A stretch of DNA of 64,000 nt from assembly GCA_038087875.1 (NCBI GenBank), contig CM075994.1, positions 248,001 through 312,000 on the forward strand, given 5' to 3'. Source of the DNA: Malacoraja senta. Its lineage: Eukaryota. Shown here one piece after another: positions 27,451-64,000 of this stretch. Each line of letters begins with the position of its first letter. The stretch's first letter is position 1. The position numbers and the translations under genes are program-made. The notes under the pieces are model-generated. The model saw nothing but the letters and a program-made list of their open reading frames with translations. It did not search any database and was not told the origin of the DNA.

Positions 27451-27591
27451 ACGTGGCACAGACCTGTAGGTACGTTACAAAACTTACCTTCAGCAGCGCT
27501 GCGGTTCTGCCACTGGCCGTGTGCGGGACTTTGGCGCCTTTGAGGTAGGGAGGGAAGGGGGGGAGGGGGTTAAGATGCGGTTGTCTACTTT

Positions 27592-28858
27592 GACTGCTTT
27601 GGTGCCACCTCCTGCAACCACACACAACTGACTGACTTCAACCACTTCACCACCAACTTCCATCCGGCACTCAAATACACCTGGACCATTTCCGACACTT
27701 CCCTACCATTCCTTGACCTCACTATCTCCATCGCAGGTGATAGACTTCTGACCGACTTCCACTACAAACCTACCGACTCCCATGGCTATCTGGACTACAC
27801 TTCTTCCCACCCTGCTTCCTGTAAGGACTCCATCCCCCACTCCCAATTCCTCCGTCTACGCCGCATCTGCTCCCAGGATGAGGCGTTCCACACCAGGGCA
27901 TCTGAAATGTCCTCATTCTTCAGGGAACGGGGGTTCCCCTCCTCCACCATAGATGAGGCTCGCACCAGGGTCTCTGCCATACCCCGCAACACTGCTCTCT
28001 CTCCCCATCCCCCCACTCACAACAAAGGCAGAGTCCCCCTAGTCCTCACCTTTCACCCCACCAGCCGTCACATACAACAAGTGATCCTCCGTCAGTTTCG
28101 CCACCTCCAACGTGACCCCACCACTCGCCACATCTTCCCATCTCCCCCTATGTCTGCCTTCCGCAAAGACCGCTCCCTCCGTAACTCCCTTGTCAATTCT
28201 TCCCTTCCCTCCCATACCACCCCCTCCCCTGGTACTTTCCCTTGCAACCGCAAGAGATGCAACACTTGTCCCTTCACTTCCCCCCTCCACTCCATTCCAG
28301 GACCCAAGCAGTCGTTCCAGGTGCGACAGAGGTTCACCTGCATCTCCTCCAACCTCATCTATTGCATTCGCTGCTCTAGATGCCAGCTGATCTACATCGG
28401 TGAGACCAAGCGGAGGCTTGGCGATCGTTTCGCCGAACACCTCCGGTCGGTCCGCAATAACCAACCTGAACTCCCGGTGGCTCAGCACTTCAACTCCCCC
28501 TCCCATTCCGTATCTGACCTCTCTGTCCTGGGTCTCCTCCATGGCCACAGCGAGCAACACCGTAAATTGGAGGAAATGCACCTCATATTCCGCTTGGGCA
28601 GTCTACACCCTGGTGGCCTGAACGTTGAATTCTCCCAATTCTGCTAGCCCTGGCTGTCCCCTCCCCTTCATCAGCCATCTGGTTGTCTCCTCCCCTCCCC
28701 CAACCCTCGGGCTCCTCCTCCTCCTTTTCCTTTTTTCCTTTCTTCTCCCCACCCCCTATCAGTCTGAAGAAGGGTTTCGGCCCGAAACGTTACCTATTTC
28801 CTTCGCTCCATAGATGCTGCTGCACCCGCTGAGTTTCTCCAGCATTTTTGTGTACCTT
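27592..28858 (+). mobile_element. Penelope-like element copy 1 (RT C-terminus, GIY-YIG endonuclease, terminal repeat)
   Basis: Open frame 27592-28647: DCFG..LPFLDL..YKPTD..NLIYCIRCSRCQLIYIGETKRRLGDRFAEH. Confidence 0.95.
28761..28794 (+). ncRNA. Minimal type I hammerhead ribozyme motif in Penelope terminal repeat (second copy near 29836-29870)
   Basis: CUGAAGA+A, stem II GGGU-UUCG-GCCC, GAA, palindromic ACGU, cleavage triplet GUU. Confidence 0.65.
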
Positions 28859-49410: not shown

Positions 49411-50815
49411 ATGGGCCTCGGTGTGGGAAAGTGAGCAAACCCTATATTTGCATTTCACCCTACACTTGTGAACTTAGCATCGACACTGGGCGGCACGGTG
49501 GAGGTTATTGGTTTCAAAGCACTTTAAAAAATTGAACTATCTTTTCAAACTGTTTTAATCTTTTAAAAAACAGGGTCTTTTTAAGCCTTAACTTGTTTGT
49601 TTATTTTGCATATGTTGTGTCAAAGCCATTAAAATGACCTGCGCTGTTATAAAAGCTCTTTGAGTATATTTGAATATATGCAAATATTTGCAGGGTTTTT
49701 CTGGGTGTGGAGGAATATCTCAGATGACTCTCAGTCTGAAGTAGGGTCTTGACCCAAAACACCGCCTATTCCTTTTCGCCAGAGATGCTGCCTGTTCCGC
49801 TGAGTTACTCCAGCATTTTGTCTATCTTCCATGTAAACAAAAGACAGCTGTGGTATCATTTTACTGACATTAGTTTTATGAAAATACCTCATCCTAGGCA
49901 GGCTCTCTTGTTAGAAACCTGGAGAATTCTCTGGTCAGAGCCTGATTATGAGAGACTGCTACTTCACAGAAAGACATTGAGTTATATTGAAGGTTATTAG
50001 GGGTGGAAACACAACTGACAAACTAAAACATGATGATCATCTGATTTCCCATTGTGTGCCTTCTTGTTACTTGCTTGCATTCTGTTTTGTTCCATGGCTG
50101 TACAATCTCACTTTAATCAGCATTGAAAATGCTGTATCAGCATCAAAAATTATTGGCTTACCCCTACCATCCCTTGAATCACTTTATCACAAACGGTCAC
50201 TGCACAGAGCCCGCAAGATCATCTCTGATCCTACCCACCCTGCACACTATGCCTTTCAGCTACTGCCCTCTGGGAGGCGTTACAGGTCAATTGCCTCCAA
50301 AACAAGCCGCCTCAAAAACAGTTTCATTCCCACTGCAATTAACATTTTAAACTCTGTACGGTGAGGAATAAGAATAAGCATGGCACTTATGTATTATGTA
50401 ATGTGTCTGTCTGTATGTACATCTATGTTATAAGTTTAATGTTGATGAAATGTTGGAACCTGTACCGAGCTGTACTGATAACAAATTCCACCAGCCTGGC
50501 TGTGTGGTCATTAAAATATACAATACAATACAATACAATCTTAATTTTCAAGTTCAGTCAAAATGGTCTTTATTAATGTAGGTCTTGTGATACCGATACA
50601 CCATTGTTTCTTTTTAGCATTTTGTGAGTCAACCAGTTAACATAACAAAGCAATTTATTAGTAAAATATATATAGATAGGCAGTGCTTTTATACCCTGTG
50701 TGCTATTCACATGAAGCAGCTTCATCCACCACAATATAGTAAGTATATGGAGAGACTGGTAGGTAATGGGGCAGAATTCCTAAAGAAACATGCATTCCAA
50801 TATTACATAAGCCAA

Positions 50816-51120
50816 GGGCGGCACGGTGGTGCAGCAGTAGAGTTGCTGCCTCACAGCACCAGAGACCTGAGTTCGATCCTGACTACGGGTGCTGTCTGTG
50901 CGGAGTTTGTACGTTCACCCCATGATCTGCGTGGCTTTTCTCTGAGATCTTCAGTTTCCTCCCACACTCCAAAGATGTACAGGTTTGTAGGTTAATTGGC
51001 TTGGTATAAATGTAAATGATCCCTAGTGTGTGTAGGATAGCATTAGCGTGCAGTGATCGCTGCACGGCACGGACACGGTGGGCCGAAGGGCCCTTTTCCA
51101 CACTGTATCTCTAAACTAAA
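50816..51120 (+). mobile_element. Full-length V-SINE (HE1-like)
   Basis: A-box TGGTGCAGCAG, B-box AGTTCGATCC, V-domain, (CTAAA)n tail. Confidence 0.9.
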
Positions 51121-51985
51121 CAATATATTACATTTTACTCAGCGATTAAGAAACTACTAGTAGAGATACGCATTTCATGCAGCTTGTTCCAAGGAATAGT
51201 CAAGTCAAGTCAAGTCAAGTGAGTTTATTGTCATGTGTCCCTGATAGGACAATGAAATTCTTGCTTTGCTTCAGCACAACAGAACATAGTAGGCATTGAC
51301 TACAAGGCATTCTATAAATATATACACACATGAATCAATATACTGATAAAGTGCAAATAACAGTATTGGCTAATAAAGTTCAGTGTTATGTCCGAGCCAG
51401 GTTTAATAGCCTGATGGCTGTGGGGAAGTAGCTATTCCTGAACCTCGTCGTTGCAGTCTTCAGGCTCCTGTACCTTCTACCTGAAGGTAGTAGGGAGATG
51501 AGTGTGTGGCCAGGATGGTGTGGGTCCTTGATGATACTGCCAGCCTTTTTGAGGCAGCGACTGTGATAGATCCCCTCGACGGAAGGGAGGTCAGAGCCGA
51601 TGATGGACTGGGCAGTGTTTACTACTTTTTGTAGTCTTTTCCTCTCCAGGGCGCTCAAGCTCGGAGCCGAGCGGTACCAGGCCGGGCCGGTGTGTGTGTG
51701 TGAGAGAGACAGACTAGCCAGCCGAGAGCAAGCCCGGGCTTGCCGGGCGCTACCAGGCCGGGCCGGTGCGACAACCGCGGCGGGAGAGAGAGGGAGAGAG
51801 AGAGAGAGAGAGAGAGGCGACCCGAGAGCCCGGGAACAGGCAACAGGCAACAGGCAACAGGCAACAGGCGGCGGGCCGGGCCGTGCGGTGGCGGCGGCGG
51901 CAGCAGTTTATGGAGAGAAATGACGTGAACAGTCAAATGGGAGACTGTCAGAATTAAGTGTTAAGAGTTAAGAATTAAGCAGGAG

Positions 51986-52063
51986 ATGGCGGCGGCCGAG
52001 CACGAGCGCATCCTGCAGGAGATCGAGAGCACAGAGTCGGCTTGCATCGGGCCCACGCTCCGT
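51986..52063 (+). pseudogene. EXOC6B: Captured N-terminal coding fragment of exocyst complex component 6B/6 within the LINE leader
   Basis: Translates MAAAEHERILQEIESTESACIGPTLR, matching the vertebrate EXOC6B/EXOC6 N-terminal motif as I recall it (EHERILxEIESTDTACxGPTLR). A MER start lies upstream at 51910. Paralog assignment (6B versus 6) is tentative. Confidence 0.85.
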
Positions 52064-52162
52064 CTAAGGAGAGCGATTATCCGAAGCTGAAAGAAGTTGA
52101 AGGCTGAAGGCTGTGTCGTCGCTGCGGACAGACGGACGGACGGACGGAGCTGAGCAGTCAAA

Positions 52163-52808
52163 ATGCCACCAAAGAAGAACGAGGAAATTGAGGATATAAA
52201 GAAGGCGCTTGATTTTCTGTCTGAGGAGATGGCTACTGTCTCTAAGCAACAGAAAATGATAATTAATTTGATGAGTGAAATTAAAGAACTGAAAAAACAA
52301 AATGAGGAGAAGGATAAGAGGATCGCCAGCCTAAAATGCCATGTAACAGACCTGGAGCAGTACACCCGCATGAATGACATTATTGTCAGTGGACTGGAGA
52401 CCAGGCCCCGGTCCTACGCCAGGGCGGTAACAGCAATGGCCGATGGGGAGCCCACCGCTCCAGACATGGACTCCGTGGAGCAACAGGTAACTGCTTTCTT
52501 TCATAGCAAAGGCATATCCATATCCAACACAGACATTGAAGCATGTCATCCTTTACCTCGAAAAAACCAAAGTGTCAAACCAGCCATAATAATTCTTTTT
52601 ACGAACAGAAAACACAAAAATGCATTGCTCAGACAAGGGAAAAAGCTCATGGGATCTGATGTTTATGTGAATGAGCACCTTACAAAAAAAATGCAGATAT
52701 CGTCAGAAGCGCACGCATCCTAAGGTGTTCATAAAGCTAAACGGATCAGCAGAGGAGGCTAAAGTGCTGACCATAAGATACATCGAGGAGCTGGACAAGT
52801 ACCAGTGA
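52163..52808 (+). CDS. LINE ORF1 (coiled coil plus RRM-like), frameshifted near the C-terminus
   Basis: DLEQYTRMNDIIVSGL..DIEACHPL..VYVNEHLT. A-run slip near 52690, then KVFIKLNG..EELDKYQ* in a shifted frame. Confidence 0.85.
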
Positions 52809-52861
52809 CTCCAGAACAGTGACTGTGTCTATCAGTGGGATTGACTTGAACTATTACGATC

Positions 52862-55800
52862 ATGGACTCTTGTGAAGAGTTTGACTGTTTAAACTTGATA
52901 ACAGCTGGAAATGAAAGGGACAATGATGACTGTGATGGTTGGAACTTTAAATCATTTAAATTCACTGATCATAATATGCATGATTTTGAACAAGATATTG
53001 ACCCTGAAAATAATTTTCTTAACAATATAAACAATAACTGCTGTTATTACTCTGAAGATCAATTCAACATGAACATAAAATCAGATCATGGAATGTCAAT
53101 AATTCATTTCAATAGCAGAGGTTTATATGCAAATTTTCACAACATCAAGGATTACTTAAGTCATCTAAACAAACCATTCAATGTGATAGCCATATCTGAG
53201 ACCTGGCTTAGTACTGAAAAGGGTGTGGATTTTGAGTTAAATGGATATGAACTGAATTACATAAATAGGAAAAATAAAAAAGGAGGAGGGGTGGCTTTGT
53301 ATGTAGATAAAAGATTAAATTATAAAATAGTGGAAAATATGACAACTAATATTGATGATGTGATGAAGATTATTACTGTAGTAATCTACCTGAAAAAAAA
53401 GAAAAATGTACTTGTAAGTTGTGTATACAGAGCACCTGGTTCCAATATTGAAATATTTAAGAATAGTATGGAAAGATTGTTTGCCAAGAAAGATCACAGA
53501 GTTGTGTTCATTTGTGGGGATTTTAATTTAGATCTCTTAAATCCCAACAAGCACAGACAGACTGATGAATTTATCGATGTATTGTTCAGTATGAGTTTTT
53601 TTCCACTTATCACCAAACCAAGTAGAATAACATCTCACTGTGCAACTCTAATAGACAACATATTTACAAACAGTATGGACAACAACATAAAGAGTGGGTT
53701 ACTATTAAATGACATCAGTGACCATCTACCGGTTTTTGTAATGTTTGTTTGTGATTCTGTTAAGTGTAAGGATGTTAATAAGATTAGATACAGGAGAGTA
53801 AGAACAGAAGAATCTATAAATAAATTTAGAAATGTATCACTGACCCAAAATTGGAAACATGTGTTTAAAGAGGCTGATACCAACAAAGCGTATGAAACAT
53901 TCCTGATAATATTTAAATCATTATATGATGAACACTGTCCTTTGAAACTACACAACAAGAAGCAAAAATATATAGATAGGCCATAGATGACAAAAGGACT
54001 ACAAAATGCATGCAAAAAAAAGAATATCTTGTATAAAGAATTCATAAAATTCAGAACTATAGAAGCAGAAATTAAATACAAAAGATATAAAAACAAATTG
54101 ACTAGTATTATGAGGACATGTAAGAAAGATTATTATAATAAAATATTAAACGATAATAAAAATAATATCAAGGGCATATGGAATGTGTTAAATAATATTA
54201 TCAGGAATGGATCAATGAATATAAACTACCCTCAGTATTTTGAAGACAATGATACAACAGTAAGCGATATGAATGATGTGGTTAATGGGTTTAACAAATT
54301 TTTTGTAAGTGTGGGACCAAAACTGGCAGAAGAAATCGATAATCCACAGTCAGAAGAAGGAGAGGGGAAGGTTGTGGATTTGTTAAACAGCAACCCAAAC
54401 TCAATGTTTTTGAAAGCAGCTGATGAAAAGGAGATTATTTACATTGTTAGTAATTGTAAGAATAAAAGGTCTACAGACTGGAATGACATTGATATGGCTT
54501 TAATCAAGGTAGTCATTGGTGTAATTGTAAAACCCTTAACTTATATTTGCAATTTATCTTTCAAAACTGGTGTATTTCCATGTAAAATGAAAACTGCCAA
54601 AGTCATCCCACTATACCAAGCTGGAGACAGAAATCAATTTACAAATTACAGGCCGGTGTCGTTACTCTCTCAGTTCTCAAAAATATTAGAAAAACTGTAT
54701 GTAAGTAGATTAGATAACTTTATCGAGAAGCACGAATTGCTAGTTGATAGTCAATATGGATTCAGGTCAAACAGATCGACATCCATGGCATTAATGGAGT
54801 TAATTGAAGACATTACCAGTTCTATAGATAACAAGAAATATGCAGTGGGTGTATTTATAGATTTGAAAAAAGCATTCGATACGATTGATCATCATTTGCT
54901 AATCAAAAAACAGGAAAAGTATGGAATCAGAGGGGTTGTACTAGAGTGGATGAGAAGCTACATAAGTAAAAGACATCAGTTTGTGCAAATAGGGGACTGC
55001 AAATCAGCATGCTTAGAAATAACTTGTGGAGTCCCACAGGGGTCGGTTTTGGGCCCCAAATTATTTATTTTGTATATTAATGATATATGTAGGGTGTCAA
55101 ACCTCTTGAAATTTGTGTTATTTGCAGATGACACTAATATTTTCTGTGATGGGGACAATTTGCAGCAGCTTTTGGAGGTGGTCACAGCAGAAATGAGTAA
55201 ACTAAAAACATGGTTTGATTTGAATAAATTATCATTAAATTTAAACAAAACCAAACTTATGCTGTTTGGAAAATGCAAAATAAATACACAAGTAAAAGTA
55301 ATGATAAATAATGTTGAAATAGAAAGAGTGTATGAAAATAAATTTCTGGGTGTGATTCTTGATCACAAAATCTGCTGGAAACCCCATATAAAACATGTGA
55401 GAGCAAAAGTAGCACGGAGTATTGGAGTGATGGGGAAAGCAAGGCATGTTTTGAATGAGAGAGCACTGTATATTCTGTACAGCTCACTTGTGTTACCGTA
55501 TTTAAATTACTGTGTGGAAGTATGGGGCAACACCTACAAAACCACCGTACAATCACTAAGCACACTACAAAAAAGAGCTATTCGTATAGTAAACAATGTA
55601 GGATATCATGAACACACCAATATACTGTATTTAAAATTACACACCTTAAAGATTAAGGATCTGGTAGAATTTAAGACTACACAAATAATTTATAAAGCAA
55701 AAAATAAACTGCTACCTGTAAACATACAAAAACTGTTCAGAGACAGAGAGGGGGGTTATAACTTTAGAGGGAAACTAAACTTGAAACAGCATTATGCTCG

Positions 55801-55972
55801 GACCAATTTAAAAAGTATGTGTATTTCCATTTGTGGGGTGGTTTTGTGGAATGGTCTTGACAAAACGATTAAACAAAGTATGAATATAATGCAATTTAAA
55901 AAAATGTACAAAAGATATATCTTTGAAAAGTACAGTAATGAGGAAGGAGAATGTAAATCTCACAGATGTTAA
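52862..55972 (+). CDS. LINE ORF2 (AP endonuclease plus reverse transcriptase) with a single nonsense codon
   Basis: ISETWL, GGGVALY, GDFN, SDHLPV, then [23 protein letters not shown] at 53984-53986 where PW is expected. Confidence 0.95.
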
Positions 55973-57014
55973 TGGTGCTTGTTCTTTTTGTTCTTTTCTT
56001 TTTTTGTTCTTTTTTTCTTAATTGCTTGATTGGAGTAGTTTTATTTGAATTGTCTGTTTAGTTTATTTTATTGAATTTTGCATTTGTTAATGGTGAAGAA
56101 TGGGGGTAGGACTTGACAAGCATAGGCTTCTTCCTATCCCTTTTCGAACGAGTCTAATGTGTATTATGTTGAAATTGCCTTTTGATTTTTTAATTTATGT
56201 ATGTACATATATGTTATGTATATGTGCATGTGTGTATATGTGTATATGTATGTATGTATATATGTACATGTATATGTATGTATGTGTGTATGTATTTATG
56301 TATATATATATGTATATATATAATTTTCCTTTATTTATTATTCATTTTCATCTTTTCTTTTCTTCTTTTTTTTAATCGTTTGAAAAAAACACAAAAAAAC
56401 AACAACAACAAAAAAAGAAAGTTGCCGAACCAAGCCACGATGCAACCGGTCAGCATTCTCTCTACTGTGCACCTGTAGAGAGAGTCCTCCTTGACAAAAT
56501 AGTTTACATTGATAACATTTGCTTTGTCTGTCTGAATAGTTAGCAGGGCTATTTTGCTTTTATTGCATTTACAGTATTTGCATCTGACGAATAGCAGGAC
56601 CAAGCATATTTCTCACTCCAGTGATGTCAAGCAGCTGAGCTAATAATTGTTTTTTTCTTCCCCCAAGTGTGATTTTCCAGTTGTTGCAGGGTGTGGGATG
56701 CAGAGCAAGATGTAGTCACAAATCCATACAAAGGCGTGGGTTTTCTCCGAGTGCTCCTGTTTCCTCCCACACTACAAAGGAAGAAGGGTTTCGGCCTGAA
56801 ACGTTGCCTATTTCCTTCGCTCCATAGATGCTGCTGCACCCGCTGAGTTTCTCCAGCATTTTTGTGTACCAAAGGATATATATAACCTGTTTCCGCCCTG
56901 TATCTCTAAACTAAACTAAACTAAACTAAAGCTCATGACATCAGTCCGGGCTCACCCTCCAGTAATTGGCCCTGAGTTGGTTAATGGTTTATTTATTGTC
57001 TTTTGGACCAACCC

Positions 57015-57282
57015 CTTTTCCGGGGTTACGTCCGTGCATGGGTGGTACTGGAGAGGGACTACACGCAGTCTACGGGCACCCTGGGGAATTTTCGGGACTG
57101 TTGGGCACCGCAGTGGGTGGAATGCATCCTTGACATCGATTGCAATATAGTTGTGTAATACTCCGTATATTTGATATTTAAGAAGATCTGTTTTACTTAC
57201 ACGAAAGTGGTGGGTTTGTTTGAATTGTTTAGTATTGTAAATAATTCAATAAATCAAATTTTGGTTTAAATTAAAAAAAAAA
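57015..57282 (+). mobile_element. Tx1-like LINE 3' end (second copy 58465-58730)
   Basis: The 58465 copy reads RGNVRARVVLERDYALSTGTL..DRW. The two copies are mutually homologous and A-tailed. Confidence 0.65.
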
Positions 57283-57899
57283 CAGAGCCAACCTTCTACG
57301 AATACCCTTAACGTACATAATGCCACTTAGAAAATAACATTTGGTATTATCTTTAAAAATGTCTGTGTCCTCAGACTGAGCTCAGACTGGCTCATAGAAA
57401 GTGGAAAAGTATGTTTTGGTACGCGAAAGAAGAAATGGCACTTACAATAAAATGAAGATACACACAAAAAGCTGGAGTAAGTCAGCGGGACATCTCTGGA
57501 GAGAGGGAATGGGTGACGTTTTAGGTCGAGACCCTTCTTCAGACTGGTTAGGGATAGGGGAAACGAGAGATACAGGCGATGGTGTAGAGATATAAAGATC
57601 AATAAATGAAATATATGCAAAAAAGTAACGATGATAAAGGAAACAGGCCATTGTTGGCTGTTTGATAGGAGAAAACGAGAAGCTGGTGCGACTTGGGTGG
57701 GGGAGGGATAGAGAGAGGGAATGCCGGGGCTACCTGAAGTAAGAGAAATCATGAAACTAGATCTAAAGGGTAACATCTGCCTCACTGTCACTGGGTGCGA
57801 TTGAAATGCATTTGCTAATCTGTATCTTCCTGAGGTGCCTGATCTATGATTATCGTTGGACCATCTGCAAAGGTTAAAGGCTCGATGGCCTGCAGGAAA

Positions 57900-58424
57900 G
57901 GTAATCACGGGCAGGCGGTTACTGGCTTTCGTTACCGGAAGCGGGGACCGTGCGGCTACCGCGGGAGCGCCACGCGGATTTGTCCCACGAGCATGTGGTA
58001 AGTTCAATCTTACCGGAAGCTGTTGTCGCGCGGATTCCGGGTGGTCACCGCACGGCCTGTCCCACGGGCCGACTGGAATGGATGTCGCGCGGCGGCGGCT
58101 GAAGATGTCATCGCGCAACGCAATGCGCTACGTGATGACGTCGAGACGGCTCGCGGCACACTGGCGGTGCTCGCGGTGCTCGTGGCACACTGGCGGTGCT
58201 GTGGCGGTGCTCGTGGCGCACTGGCGGCGGCTGTGCGGTAGGCCAACATTTTTGAACGGTGTCGACTTTTTGTGAGCACCGCGTGGTGTTGAGACCAACT
58301 ACATACGGTCCCGGCGGTGTACGTGGGACCGACCCCGCGGGCCATGCGCGGTCTCTGGTGGTCCACGAGCGTTCCTAACTTCCTGCTACACTGCCAGTAA
58401 CCGCATACCCGTGGGACAGGCCTT
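57900..58424. mobile_element. Harbinger-type MITE, left end degraded
   Basis: Right end GTGGGACAGGCCTTTAA. Inverted CACGGG..GCGGTTACTGGC at 57906 and 58394-58413. Confidence 0.6.
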
Positions 58425-59349
58425 TAAGGGACACCATGCACATCAAAGGGAGATTCTGTGCCACTTTGCCGGGGTAATGTCCGAGCCCGGGTGGTACTAG
58501 AGAGGGACTACGCACTGTCCACGGGCACTCTGTGGGATTTCTGGGACCGCTGGGGACCGCGGGGATGGAATGTATCCACAATAAGAATTGTATTATAGTT
58601 ATTTGATTAATTTAGTGCATAAGATAATTTGGTGATTTTGTATTATGGTGGTGGGTGGATGTGTTACCACGGTTTTAGTTTGTAAATATTATTTTGTATC
58701 GTAACAGAATACATTATTTTTGATTTAAAAAAGTGAGATTCTGTATAAAGTATCCTATGTATACAATGTCCTAGATTGCTCCGAGTGGTCACTGCATTTG
58801 ACACTCTTAAATCCACAACATGCTGGAGTAAATCAGCGGGAGAGGCAGCATCCCTTGCGAGAAGGAATGGGTGGCGTTTTGGGTCGACACCCTTCTGTAG
58901 CTTTCCCCTCACTCTGCAGCGTTCAGCCCTTGGTACAAATTGCCTTTGGTATAAATGTAAATTGTCCCTAGTGTGTGGCGCATATTAGTGTGCGGGGATC
59001 GTTGGTCAGGACCAGTTTCCGCGTTGTATGATCTAAACTAAACTAAACTAAACTGAAGTTTGCAACTATGTATTTCTCATGGCCTTACACCTGATTCTAT
59101 CTTTAGCCTGAGTCCAACACTCTGGCTATCAGGGAACCCCCTCGTCTGAGGTCATCTTTTGCCGGCCATGTTTACTCCGATCCTTCACTCTTCCAGCTTT
59201 CAGTCCTGCTCCCACCTCTGAAATGTCACCAACCCATTTCCTCCTGAGATGCTCCCTGACCCGCTGAGTAACTCCAGCATTTTGTGTATATCTCTGGTAT
59301 ACAGGGGAATGCAGGCCATTGAGTTCAGTATACATTGATGTATACATTT

Positions 59350-59643
59350 GGGCAGCACAGTGGCATAGCGGTAGAGTTGCTTCCATAATGCGGCAGAGAC
59401 CCGGGTTCGATCCTGACTATGGGTGCTGTCTGTATGGAGTTTGCAGTTCTCCCCGTGACCTGCGTGGGTTTATAGCAGGTGCTCCGGTTATCTCCCACAC
59501 GCAAAAGACATGCAGGTCTGTAGGTTTATTGGCTATGGTAAAAAAGTAAAATTGCCTGCAGAATATTGTTAGCGTATGCGGTAATCGCTGGTCGACTCGG
59601 TAGGCTAAAGGGCCAATATACGCACTGTATCTCTAAAGTCTAA
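59350..59643 (+). mobile_element. V-SINE (HE1-like)
   Basis: Head with GGTTCGATCC and V-domain. Confidence 0.85.
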
Positions 59644-60017
59644 CCATCATCACCATTGTTCTGGTGTCCATCTTACCCTTAAATATCCAACGTTCCCATT
59701 TCTAAGGAATATCTACCCCTTTAAGAATTTGTTCCAGTGAAAAAGCAATGTTTATGCTATCTCTGCTGCCTGCACAGCAGTGTTTACTGTAAATATATCG
59801 TGCTCTGTGTATATAAATTATTATATATAAATATGTGCCGTTGCCAAACCTGCCTAGGTTCCACTGAAGAAGGATCTCGCCCTGAATCGTCACCCATTCC
59901 TTCTCTCCAGAGATGCTGCCTGTCCCGCTGAGTTACTCCAGCTAATGTGTCGATCTTAGGTTCCACTCTTCTCCCTCCCAGATCATGAACATCAATGAAC
60001 AGTAAAGAATCAATTAT

Positions 60018-60684: not shown

Positions 60685-61225
60685 GGTATTCAAAGAGGAA
60701 AACATTAGTTAAGACCAAAGTTGGATCCGTGAAGACTGAAAAGAGTGAATTTATTATGGGGAACAAGAAAATGGCAGATGAGTTGAACAGGTACTTCGGA
60801 TCTGTCTTCACTAAGGAGGACACAAACAATCTTCCTGATGTTCAAGTGGGCAGAGGATCTGGGGTGACGGAGGAACTGAAGGAAATTCATATTAGGCAGG
60901 AAATGGTGTTGGGTAGACTGATGGGATTGAAGGCTGATAAGTTTAGGGGTAACATTAGGGGGAACTTCTTTACTCAGAGAGTGGTAGCTGTGTGGAATGA
61001 GCTTCCAGTGGAAGTGGTGGAGGCTGGTTCGATTTTATCCTTTAAAAATAGATTGGATGGGTATATGGACGTGAAAGGAATGGAGGGTTATGGTCTGAGT
61101 GCAGGTAGATGGGACTAGGGAGAAGTATTTATTAAAAAAAAATAAAAAAAATTAAAAAATTGTTCGGCACGGACTTGAAGGGCCGAGATGGCCTGTTTCC
61201 GTGCTGTAATGGTTATATGGTTATA
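60685..61225 (+). mobile_element. CR1 fragments joined across a large internal gap
   Basis: ..GRLMGLKADK joined directly to FRGNIRGNFFTQRVV. Confidence 0.75.
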
Positions 61226-64000
61226 TGGACACACCATTGCCAGATTTTGTTGACCAAATTGTCACATATCGATTTTATTCCGCCCATATGGTTAATATAG
61301 GCCACCACCGTGGTATTATCAATTTGTAAACGAACATGCAAATGGTGCATATCCGTAGAATATGCTTTTAAACCATAAAACGCACCCAACATTTCCAAGT
61401 AATTTATGCCCAGTGTTTGTAGTAAAGATGATTCTAGGTTAGTCCATCTACCACCTGTGCTGGATATGGTATTAGTTGCTCCCCAGCCTTGAGCACTGGC
61501 ATCTGTTTGTATAATTAATGTTGGGTTATTGATGATGATAGGGCTGGAACTATGCCAAATGTGTTCCATCCACCATTGTAACTCTGATATTGCTTCAATG
61601 GGTAATTTCATGGTTCGGTCAAAGTGACCTGCATGTTGTTTCAACGGCTATACGTTTGCCCTTTGTAGGTTCTGATAGTGCCGGGGTCCAAATTGTGTAG
61701 CTGGAAATGCTGCTACCATTTTGCCAATTACTCTTGCCACTTGTCGGATGGTTGGTCGATTGCTAACCATTAAATTGTTGCACGTCTGTGCCAATTCGGC
61801 TGCTTTACCTTTTGGCAACGTTACAGACATGTGGACTGAGTTAATTGTGAATCCCAGATAGTCCATAGTTGTGGATGGCGTCAACTTAGATTTATCTGGA
61901 TGTATGACAAATCCCAGGGTTTCAAACAATTGTTTGGTAGCTAATACAGCTGATTTTTACTCCATGGTGTTGCCTACTATTAGGATATCATCAACGTATG
62001 CCATGACAATATGTCTTTGTTTTCTTAATGTTGCCAAGGCTGGTTTTAATATCTTGGTAAATAGTCTAGGGGCTGATGTTAACCCATTAGGCAACGCTTT
62101 ATACTGCCATAGTTGCCCCATCCAGGTAAATTTCAGGTATCTGCGATGACCCTTATGAATGGGTACTGAATAGTAGGCATCTTTTAAATCAATGCTTGCC
62201 ATAAAGTATCCTTTGGAAATCAGTTGTTTGGCAGTTACAAATGTTTCCATTTTGAAATGTGCATACTTAACAAAGGTATTTAGTGAGGTTAAGTCAATGA
62301 TGATGCGACATCCACCATCTTTTTTGGTTTTGGTAAATATATTTGAGACAAATTCCAAAGGTTCATGTTTGGATTTCTCAATGACACCCTTTGTAAGAAA
62401 CCTCACCAGTTCTGCTTGAGCCTCTAGTTCTTCTTTAACTGAGAGGGTAAAGACCCTTTGGGGTACGTGCTGAACTGGTGGCATGTTTTCTTGAATGAAC
62501 TCTATTTTGTATCCCCGAATACTGTTAAGTATATAACTATCATTCGTGAGAGACCTCCATGCTTCAATGAACAGGTGTAATCTCCCCCCTGTTAGTACAG
62601 TCCCCCCACTTTTTATATGCTGTTAGGAACCAGACCCACTTACCTCCATAGTTATGGGAGTGTTCATTGCTTCTGTTTCTTCATCCGCCGTTGTACTGCT
62701 GGATGTCCTGTTGGTTGGGGGTGGCGCATTTTCCATGGGGTCCGCTCTGGGCCCTGGCCTAAAAAAGGCTTTCGGGGATGGAATGCGGACCCCGAGCTTT
62801 CACCAGTCCTGAATGTTTGTTGTCGACTGGTGGACGCGGTGGGGTACTGCCATCTGGGTTGTGTGGGTCTGCTCGTTCCGGGGCCTGCCCTCATGAGGCC
62901 AAATGCTTTGGCCTCTTCCTCCAGGTCTTTTACTTGTTTTGTTAAGTCTTTCCCGAATAACAGGATCTGTGGCTCTGAGGCCGGTGTTTTACACAGTCCT
63001 GCATACCTGGGATTGAGGGCAGGTCTGATTATCTCCTTGCGGAGGTTGTTGATCTCGTATTGGGTGTTGCACAGCAGAGCCAGAGTGTCTTGCTGGTTTG
63101 TGGTCATATCCAACCCATCCACGGAACGAGCATAGGATGTTATCCCTGTTGTCAGGAGCTTGAGGATGCATTGTAATTTTAGCTCCTGGCTCCGGATACT
63201 CTGTCCAACATACGCCCAGATTTGGCTGTTAACGGCCGGTACATTAAGCGAACTGCAGTTCTCCGGAGGCGAGTAGATTTCTAATGCCTCATTAAGTACC
63301 TGATCTTGTAGGGGTTTGAGGAACAGGTGGTTAATGCTGGCCGCCAGTTTTGTCTCCAATGGCCGCCCTGCTCGTGGTATAGCCACGTAGCGATTCACCA
63401 CACCCAGCAGCTCTTCCTGGTCCTGTACCCCAAGCGTACTCCCGATATCTTCAGCCAATCACCCCTGTTCCTGACCAGCCCAGTCCTGGTCGCCAATGCT
63501 GCCCTCGGCTGAGGGGGAAGCAATGGCCAGTGCATTGTAAGGCATTGCTGTGGGAGTGCCTGAACCCCCTTTGCGAGACTGCTCCAGCTCCCGAAGCAAG
63601 TCTCGCTGGAGCAGTTGCTCCATGAGCCTTTCAATTCGGCTCAGGCGGCTACCCCTTCTGCTCTCAGGCGGAGCCTTCTCATCGGAGTCAGACATAACCG
63701 GCCGGTCTGTTTTTTGTCTTGATTTGCCTCCAGCCCGCTGCTGCTCCTCAGGCTGCGCTAGCGGTACTGGGCTCGGCTCGGTCTCGATGAGGGTGGACCG
63801 CAGCATGTGCGGTTCAGGTGCCGCCTCTCGCCCCCCACTGATGGGACCCTCCGGTTCTGTTGAAGTCGAACGGGCGGCGGTTTTCTTTGCTTGCCGTGCT
63901 TTACTCATTTTCCCAGTTTTACCTGGAATTACAGAGCAGAGGAAGCTTGCTATTACGACCTCAGAGTAAGTACTTACCTGATGGTCCGCTTTTTAAACTT
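61226..64000 (-). mobile_element. Younger DIRS-type retrotransposon: gag, RT, RNase H; 3'-truncated, 5' end beyond the window
   Basis: Gag-like 63908-62664 with one in-frame stop. RT (HFKMET, IDLKDAY, LPNGL..APR.FTK, YVDD) and RNase H (TDASAQGWGA, INYLEM, IDNTTVVAYINHMGG) in one frame with in-frame stops. Confidence 0.92.

Follow-up and report, generated by a model that had tools for sequence, protein, structure and literature searches.

Host exon sequence from two loci, probably captured in succession, heads a LINE in Malacoraja senta

The sudden gain of new 5′ UTRs and promoters by LINE families is an open question, and a LINE of Malacoraja senta whose leader resembles the 5′ end of a host gene poses it in a concrete form: from where was the leader taken, how was it joined to the element, and did it spread? 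The window analysed here is a stretch of 64,000 nucleotides, C18:248001-312000, of a 1.94-Gb assembly in 6,182 contigs. The original prediction held that a master copy of the LINE had acquired the 5′ end of EXOC6B or EXOC6 and that the chimera had multiplied, possibly with the leader as an internal promoter. The history that we favour, with a probability of about 80%, is one of two nested captures, the EXOC6B piece being the second, followed by duplication as DNA.

The limits of the element are set, as predicted, by the older LINE that it interrupts, which we take to be Rex1-like. The left part of this target, recognised from its frame and the empty site, occupies 51386..51659 on the minus strand and ends in a 3-nt target duplication, AAG (51657-51659); comparison with the empty site places the second AAG copy and the rest of the target at 56419..56455, also on the minus strand. 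Because the uninterrupted target sequence recurs 5,109 times in the genome, the insert can be confined to 51660-56418 with a duplication of at most 3 nt (AAG). The clean empty site and the A-rich tail mark the whole chimera as one inserted unit, with a duplication of 3 nt only, and its retrotransposition as a unit is borne out for one event. No host gene is evident in the window among open reading frames of at least 170 aa.

The LINE body lies on the plus strand. It consists of the element's own 5′ UTR (52082..52162; copy L013 begins exactly at 52082), an ORF1 of 186 aa with a coiled-coil N-terminus (52163..52723), an ORF2 encoding an AP endonuclease and a reverse transcriptase (52862..55972), both assigned from frames and domain search, and a 3′ UTR with an A-rich tail (55973..56418), delimited by comparison with siblings. 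ORF2 is interrupted by a premature stop at 53984-53986, which recurs in one of two further chimeric copies on C18, the 129k copy. AATAAA, present in 13/13 other insertions examined, and the terminal ATATC, present in 12 of these 13, are both missing, and at 56390-56418 the A-rich tail replaces the short-repeat tail of the family; mRNA-like processing or priming slippage may account for it. In the other chimeric copy, the 67k copy (L051, C18:71.3 kb), a deletion has removed the 3′ end, and about 190 nt of other sequence now occupy its place. Many 5′-truncated relatives share 95-98% identity with the element (40 of 2,672 candidates were scored), and automatic calling of target duplications gave a clear result for one of 13 insertions, L013. 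In another relative (L058, C3:27464750-27465500), an inverted piece of its own ORF2 precedes the 5′ UTR, by inversion or as a nested antisense copy. The ORF2 reverse transcriptase falls in unnamed RVT_1 clusters only. The element is presumably of the Crack/Daphne type within the CR1 group; it has in common with that type an ORF2 with both enzymes, a short-repeat tail and a skate-like host. Crack/Daphne elements are present in the little skate according to the accessible text of PMC13343379.

The leader contains an upstream open reading frame (uORF) of 34 codons at 51986..52090 on the plus strand, which translates as claimed and whose start does resemble EXOC6B/EXOC6, EXOC6B being the closer. 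In a tblastn search against the 64-kb window with filters off, 26 of 31 aligned positions were identical to EXOC6B of the skate Leucoraja erinacea (E 2.9e-9), and over 51979-52062 the differences are T to M, the loss of one EH and R to Q. The first 26 residues of the uORF are identical to tetrapod EXOC6B at 20-23 positions and to EXOC6 at 19 (two sequences). A protein search with the uORF frame returned nine matches among 14 candidates, eight of them EXOC6B and one a hypothetical protein with an EXOC6 N-terminal domain; the 34-aa peptide gave no match in PDB or Pfam. We therefore assign 51979..52062 (plus strand) to the 3′ part of EXOC6B exon 1, up to its phase-2 splice donor, on the evidence of the protein match, sequencing reads and host exon 2. 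The host gene is located on C1 and C3455, and on C1 its exon 2 begins in phase 2 directly after AG; 24/24 residues of this exon equal the Leucoraja erinacea protein up to a frameshift. The gene is fragmented in the assembly (C1:395.75-396.00 Mb and C3455): besides the frameshift of exon 2, one exon is oriented the other way and the middle exons are on an unplaced contig.

DNA, protein and two degenerate-pattern searches of the assembly for the true exon 1 returned the three C18 copies only. Two of 14 additional matches outside C18 were checked and are not EXOC6 exons; the other 12 share a near-identical 20-mer. The reads supply what the assembly lacks, including the start of intron 1. In read run X1, a contig tracks the leader up to 52062 and then continues with GT, and the X1 contig that matches from 51979 carries a 6-nt insertion and an A-to-G difference at 52017 which restore the EH repeat and the Arg seen in skate EXOC6B. 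A third X1 contig shows nine differences and has a GC donor; it probably represents the paralogue EXOC6, which a Pfam search did not find in the assembly. The GT after 52062 and the phase-2 start of exon 2 show that exon 1 was captured up to its last base, just where the similarity had been predicted to stop.

On the other side of the join, the remaining LINE copies have AG directly before position 52063, and this holds for 9/9 copies with the leader type that we call N1. The junction coincides exactly with a donor on one side and an acceptor on the other, which supports splicing as the route and favours it among the two mechanisms originally offered; template switching is unlikely. Non-splice joins do occur in the same element, at a 72-nt insert flanked by GCAG microhomologies and at the LINE boundary described below, so that an origin by template switching, or by DNA repair at a G present on both sides, has some precedent. 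However, the EXOC6B join coincides at once with the last base of the exon and with the base after AG while only 1 nt is common to both sides, and we regard such a non-splice origin as improbable. Mis-assembly at 52062/52063 is harder still to credit. The true exon 1 is missing from the assembly and no contig among those listed bridges the junction (contigs of this kind show presence, not absence), yet the same join recurs in three copies that differ by 0.3-3%, its splice geometry is exact, the exon departs from the true gene at three places, and an X1 contig covers the join between insert and exon (51924-52047) with one difference. Over the 10 kb at the end of EXOC6B intron 1, the part examined, no copy of this LINE was found. 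The search of sequencing runs for the leader gave no RNA run among the matches listed. In RNA run X22, from another organism and about 6% read, four reads fell on the LINE body and none on the leader; run X2 has no record on the leader, and neither run carries weight either way.

As predicted, the leader contrasts sharply in composition with the coding part of the element: 51660-52062 has 64% GC and a CpG observed/expected ratio of 0.95, against 32% and 0.26 for ORF2. Its first part, 51660-51906, has 71% GC and a ratio of 0.88. The segment 51660..51882 (plus strand), with (GT)n, (GA)n and 7-mer repeats, would by continuity with what follows be the 5′ UTR of EXOC6B exon 1; the assembly offers no parent for it beyond the three C18 copies. 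Next comes what appears to be the decayed EXOC6B start region with its Met codon lost (51883..51906, plus strand): the skate protein begins with Met and six Ala, the window has poly-Ala codons at 51886-51906, and the 67k copy retains six Ala. Most likely, then, 51660-51906 represents the EXOC6B 5′ UTR and first codons, an assignment that rests on protein similarity because the true exon 1 and the intron start are missing from the assembly. No joint between the true-exon contig and 51875-51906 was reported among the read contigs.

The exon is broken by a foreign insert of 72 nt (51907..51978, plus strand), which comparison with the skate protein shows to lie between AGCAG repeats in place of about seven exon 1 codons. 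It is made up of about 54 nt from another locus and short re-primed TTAAG repeats. Contigs from runs X1 and X8 match it up to 51960 (51902-51960 in X8) and then diverge, indicating a separate locus in the runs of two organisms; its parent is absent from the assembly. A CR1 origin was considered and set aside as weak: its continuation matches a decayed CR1-like remnant with two mismatches, and the insert itself matches neither the locus of this remnant nor another CR1 copy.

Two ATG codons had been offered as traces of the host reading frame, and neither is likely to be the host start. The ATG at 51910, read as the start of a peptide MER, lies within the foreign insert and, being 76 nt upstream of the uORF, is out of frame with it; none of the cartilaginous-fish EXOC6B proteins among the matches listed starts with MER. 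The ATG of the uORF is ACG in the 67k copy and corresponds to a Thr in skate EXOC6B, 15 residues after the Met, and is probably a Thr codon altered by CpG decay. The undecayed EXOC6B frame would run for about 50 codons and stop 72 nt before ORF1, an arrangement expected to hinder ORF1 translation, and this may explain why a single EXOC6B event is seen.

Spread of the EXOC6B leader from a master copy is not upheld. The full leader occurs three times in the genome, always on C18. All three copies occupy the same insertion site within some 24 kb of common flank (about 36000 to 60000) at 97-99.7% identity, the 67k copy matching in pieces over window positions 36000-60000 at 97-99% and the 129k copy having been compared over 50160-60000. 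They differ by 0.3-3%, carry the same join, and form one clade with support of 100/99 in a tree of 11 rows over about 1.45 kb from which six shorter rows were left out; a first, short tree was unresolved. A common site and common flank imply one retrotransposition followed by segmental duplication. The duplicated block, repeat-rich and at least 24 kb long, lies in three copies near the start of C18 (C18:49000-312000), at 97-99.7% identity. The original prediction had allowed that a leader confined to one copy would make a one-off chimera, and the count of LINE copies with this leader indeed comes to one site. We conclude that the EXOC6B chimera is a one-off event and not a family trait.

It could still be argued that the EXOC6B leader is the portable promoter of a spreading subfamily, since it resembles a CpG island, begins at the first base of the insert and is present in three copies. 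We consider this very unlikely. The three copies share one site and about 24 kb of flank, ORF1 ends out of frame in 3/3 of them (it reaches 207 aa in L013), and the leader is absent from the other 17 of 20 places at which the ORF1-start motif was found. These 20 comprise three chimeric copies, eight with the N1 leader, four with a third leader, N2, and five that are truncated or inverted; the motif missed L012, an N1 copy, and L013. The X1 contig with the window-type leader has a depth of 17.9, against 31-37 for the listed host-locus contigs; depth is not a copy number, and the difference hints at fewer leader copies in the sequenced sample. The leader would be a passenger of host-driven transcription, and any promoter role is putative.

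The idea that a captured leader spread does hold for N1, at four independent sites. A search with the N1 leader identified nine LINE copies and one locus on C3, of CpG-island character, at which CCAAT and GC boxes can be recognised by eye and the CpG ratio is 0.93. The N1 match to this locus ends exactly at a GTAAGT donor (C3:80033763), and the next 36 nt of N1 lie 668 nt downstream on C3, directly after AG, defining a GT-AG intron; the exon 2 match scored 61, whereas 200 shuffles reached no more than 26. In 9/9 N1 copies the two C3 exons abut without a gap, and this loss of the intron implies an RNA intermediate. The 5′ ends of the nine copies fall within 15 nt (C3:80033707-80033722), their 5′ flanks form four distinct, unrelated groups indicating four independent sites, and they have common differences from the C3 locus. 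Of the full-length leaders found in this family, this spliced host 5′ end is the commonest and stands on the majority of copies. All nine copies are on unplaced contigs, and one N1 insertion, in a Gypsy-like reverse transcriptase region, occurs four times with the same ORF1 cut (L004-L006 and L010; C5419, C5414, C750 and C2794). The gene at C3 received no identity from an exon scan, open reading frame lists or Rfam over about 52 kb. A match to a putative third exon proved to be a chance one inside an L2-like repeat, and a sigma-70 scan was set aside as having no bearing on a promoter of this type.

Comparison of the chimera with N1 and C3 shows that the LINE proper does not start at 52063, as had been supposed. 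Positions 52063..52081 (plus strand) are a piece of the C3 host exon 2 (exon from C3:80034432), with entry through a cryptic AG acceptor within it. Because these 19 nt are the remainder of C3 exon 2, EXOC6B was spliced into an earlier capture. The C3-to-LINE join, 52081/52082, is of another kind: it lies in the middle of exon 2 and has no GT donor.

These observations suggest the following history. A LINE whose own 5′ end lay near 52082 would first have been fused to C3 exon 1 and 36 nt of exon 2, a join that is directly visible. The most likely route is insertion of the LINE into C3 exon 2 on an unassembled allele, with transcription driven by the host promoter; a template switch by reverse transcriptase is the somewhat less probable one. 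Insertion is favoured because the join is mid-exon without a donor and because L013, which has a 7-nt target duplication, starts at 52082; truncation at a 5-nt microhomology could also account for that start. In the assembly C3 exon 2 carries no LINE, and no family copy lies within 30 kb downstream. The N1 form would then have retrotransposed at least four times. In a second step, EXOC6B exon 1 would have been spliced to the cryptic AG in the captured C3 exon, as the geometry of the join demonstrates, the splicing being in cis if an N1 copy lay in intron 1 and in trans otherwise, and the chimeric RNA would have inserted once, into the older LINE on C18. The third step is evident from the copies: the exon was broken by the 72-nt insert, and duplication of the block at the DNA level gave three copies, in all of which ORF1 is now broken.

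The part played by the C3 promoter may be viewed differently. The C3-derived leader of about 85 nt could itself be an internal promoter, making N1 a self-propagating subfamily and not the offspring of one host-driven source; this would be compatible with splicing of EXOC6B into N1. The 5′ ends of N1 at its four independent sites fall within 15 nt, the copies have common differences from the C3 locus, and the EXOC6B chimera required an N1-type RNA. Against this, the captured part begins downstream of the CCAAT and GC boxes, a single host-promoter source predicts clustered 5′ ends equally well, and the star-like family tree resolves no sub-branches within N1. We think self-sufficiency of N1 possible, with a probability of about one in four, and retain the host-driven source as our reading.

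Chimeras of a comparable kind are known. The accessible text of Law and Burns (2026; PMC13174262) describes 17 human mRNA/L1 5′ chimeras, six of which end at splice donors, with the source element not found at 15/17 loci; one, RAP1GDS1-L1PA2, is represented by two independent insertions and by segmental-duplication copies, and the authors offer, as speculation, that LINEs exchange their 5′ UTRs through such chimeras. So far as that text goes, the likeness is close. These chimeras join one or more sense first exons, up to a splice donor, to a near full-length LINE, their source is usually missing, and RAP1GDS1-L1PA2 likewise gained extra copies through segmental duplication. With its sense first exon, donor end, AG acceptor and insertion as a single unit, the EXOC6B join fits a spliced mRNA/LINE 5′ chimera. 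They differ in being mammalian L1 elements, whereas the window element is a fish LINE of a short-repeat-tail family, and in that the acceptor here lies inside an earlier captured host exon; the C3 capture gave four independent insertions and the EXOC6B derivative, compared with two insertions for RAP1GDS1.

The SVA elements provide a second comparison, again from the accessible parts of the sources. SVA_F1 carries MAST2 exon 1 and the chimpanzee pt_SVA_D6 carries STK40 exon 1 (Damert 2018, PMC6139936; reviewed in PMC4859970), with 84 and 94 copies, respectively, and reported promoter activity for SVA_F1 (PMC6139936, PMC4859970); pt_SVA_D6 adds further exons of eight genes on top (PMC6139936). 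In both, as here, a GC-rich first exon is spliced to a cryptic acceptor near the 5′ end of the element. SVAs, however, are non-autonomous and form multi-copy subfamilies, whereas the EXOC6B chimera is a single event. Measured against spread of the SVA_F1 type, the EXOC6B leader occupies one site with three duplicates and the C3/N1 leader has nine copies at four sites; unlike SVA_F1, the C3/N1 leader is joined to the LINE in the middle of exon 2 and not at a splice donor. Nested capture is thus already known in SVAs, and taken by itself the EXOC6B chimera is an ordinary one-off 5′ transduction. Among the top literature matches, most subscription journals being outside their coverage, none described EXOC6B fused to a LINE, a CR1-group LINE that had captured a host exon, or a non-L1 autonomous LINE with a spliced host 5′ end as its commonest full-length leader.

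What this genome adds is the parent locus of one swap, its lost intron and several independent daughters side by side, in a non-L1 element whose copies are about 2% apart. The origin of LINE 5′ UTRs from chimeras thereby becomes directly testable, by setting promoter activity of the 85-nt leader against a host-driven source allele. More tentatively, and in our estimate a little less probable even than self-sufficiency of N1, the lineage may renew its 5′ end by serial capture of host transcript starts, the C3 leader serving both as a working portable promoter and as the next acceptor. The stages would then be the element's own end, C3, EXOC6B added to C3, and a leader exchanged with another LINE; if this were true, the genome would hold successive stages of promoter replacement in one young family.

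The exchanged leader is N2, of about 190 nt. It stands at the start of members of the window LINE's family at three independent sites and at the start of a different LINE family, with a 6-nt microhomology at the join. That other family is presumably Rex1-like. We conclude that N2 is a 5′ UTR swap between two LINE families. Its copies have a diagnostic base that is found in none of the N1, chimeric or truncated copies. A second cryptic acceptor, at 52110, was dropped as a candidate, the copies concerned bearing the leader common to another LINE. N2 was seen at C7:20705630, C18:9.33/9.34 Mb and C259:226129 (L052-L054 and L062), and also in L061, L063 and L064. Elsewhere in the window there are two further groups of retroelement frames: broken frames with stops at 61213-63992 on the minus strand (gag-like, reverse transcriptase and RNase H), which we take to be DIRS-like, and a frame of 357 aa at 27574-28647 on the plus strand, comprising the end of a reverse transcriptase and a GIY-YIG domain, which is presumably Penelope-like.
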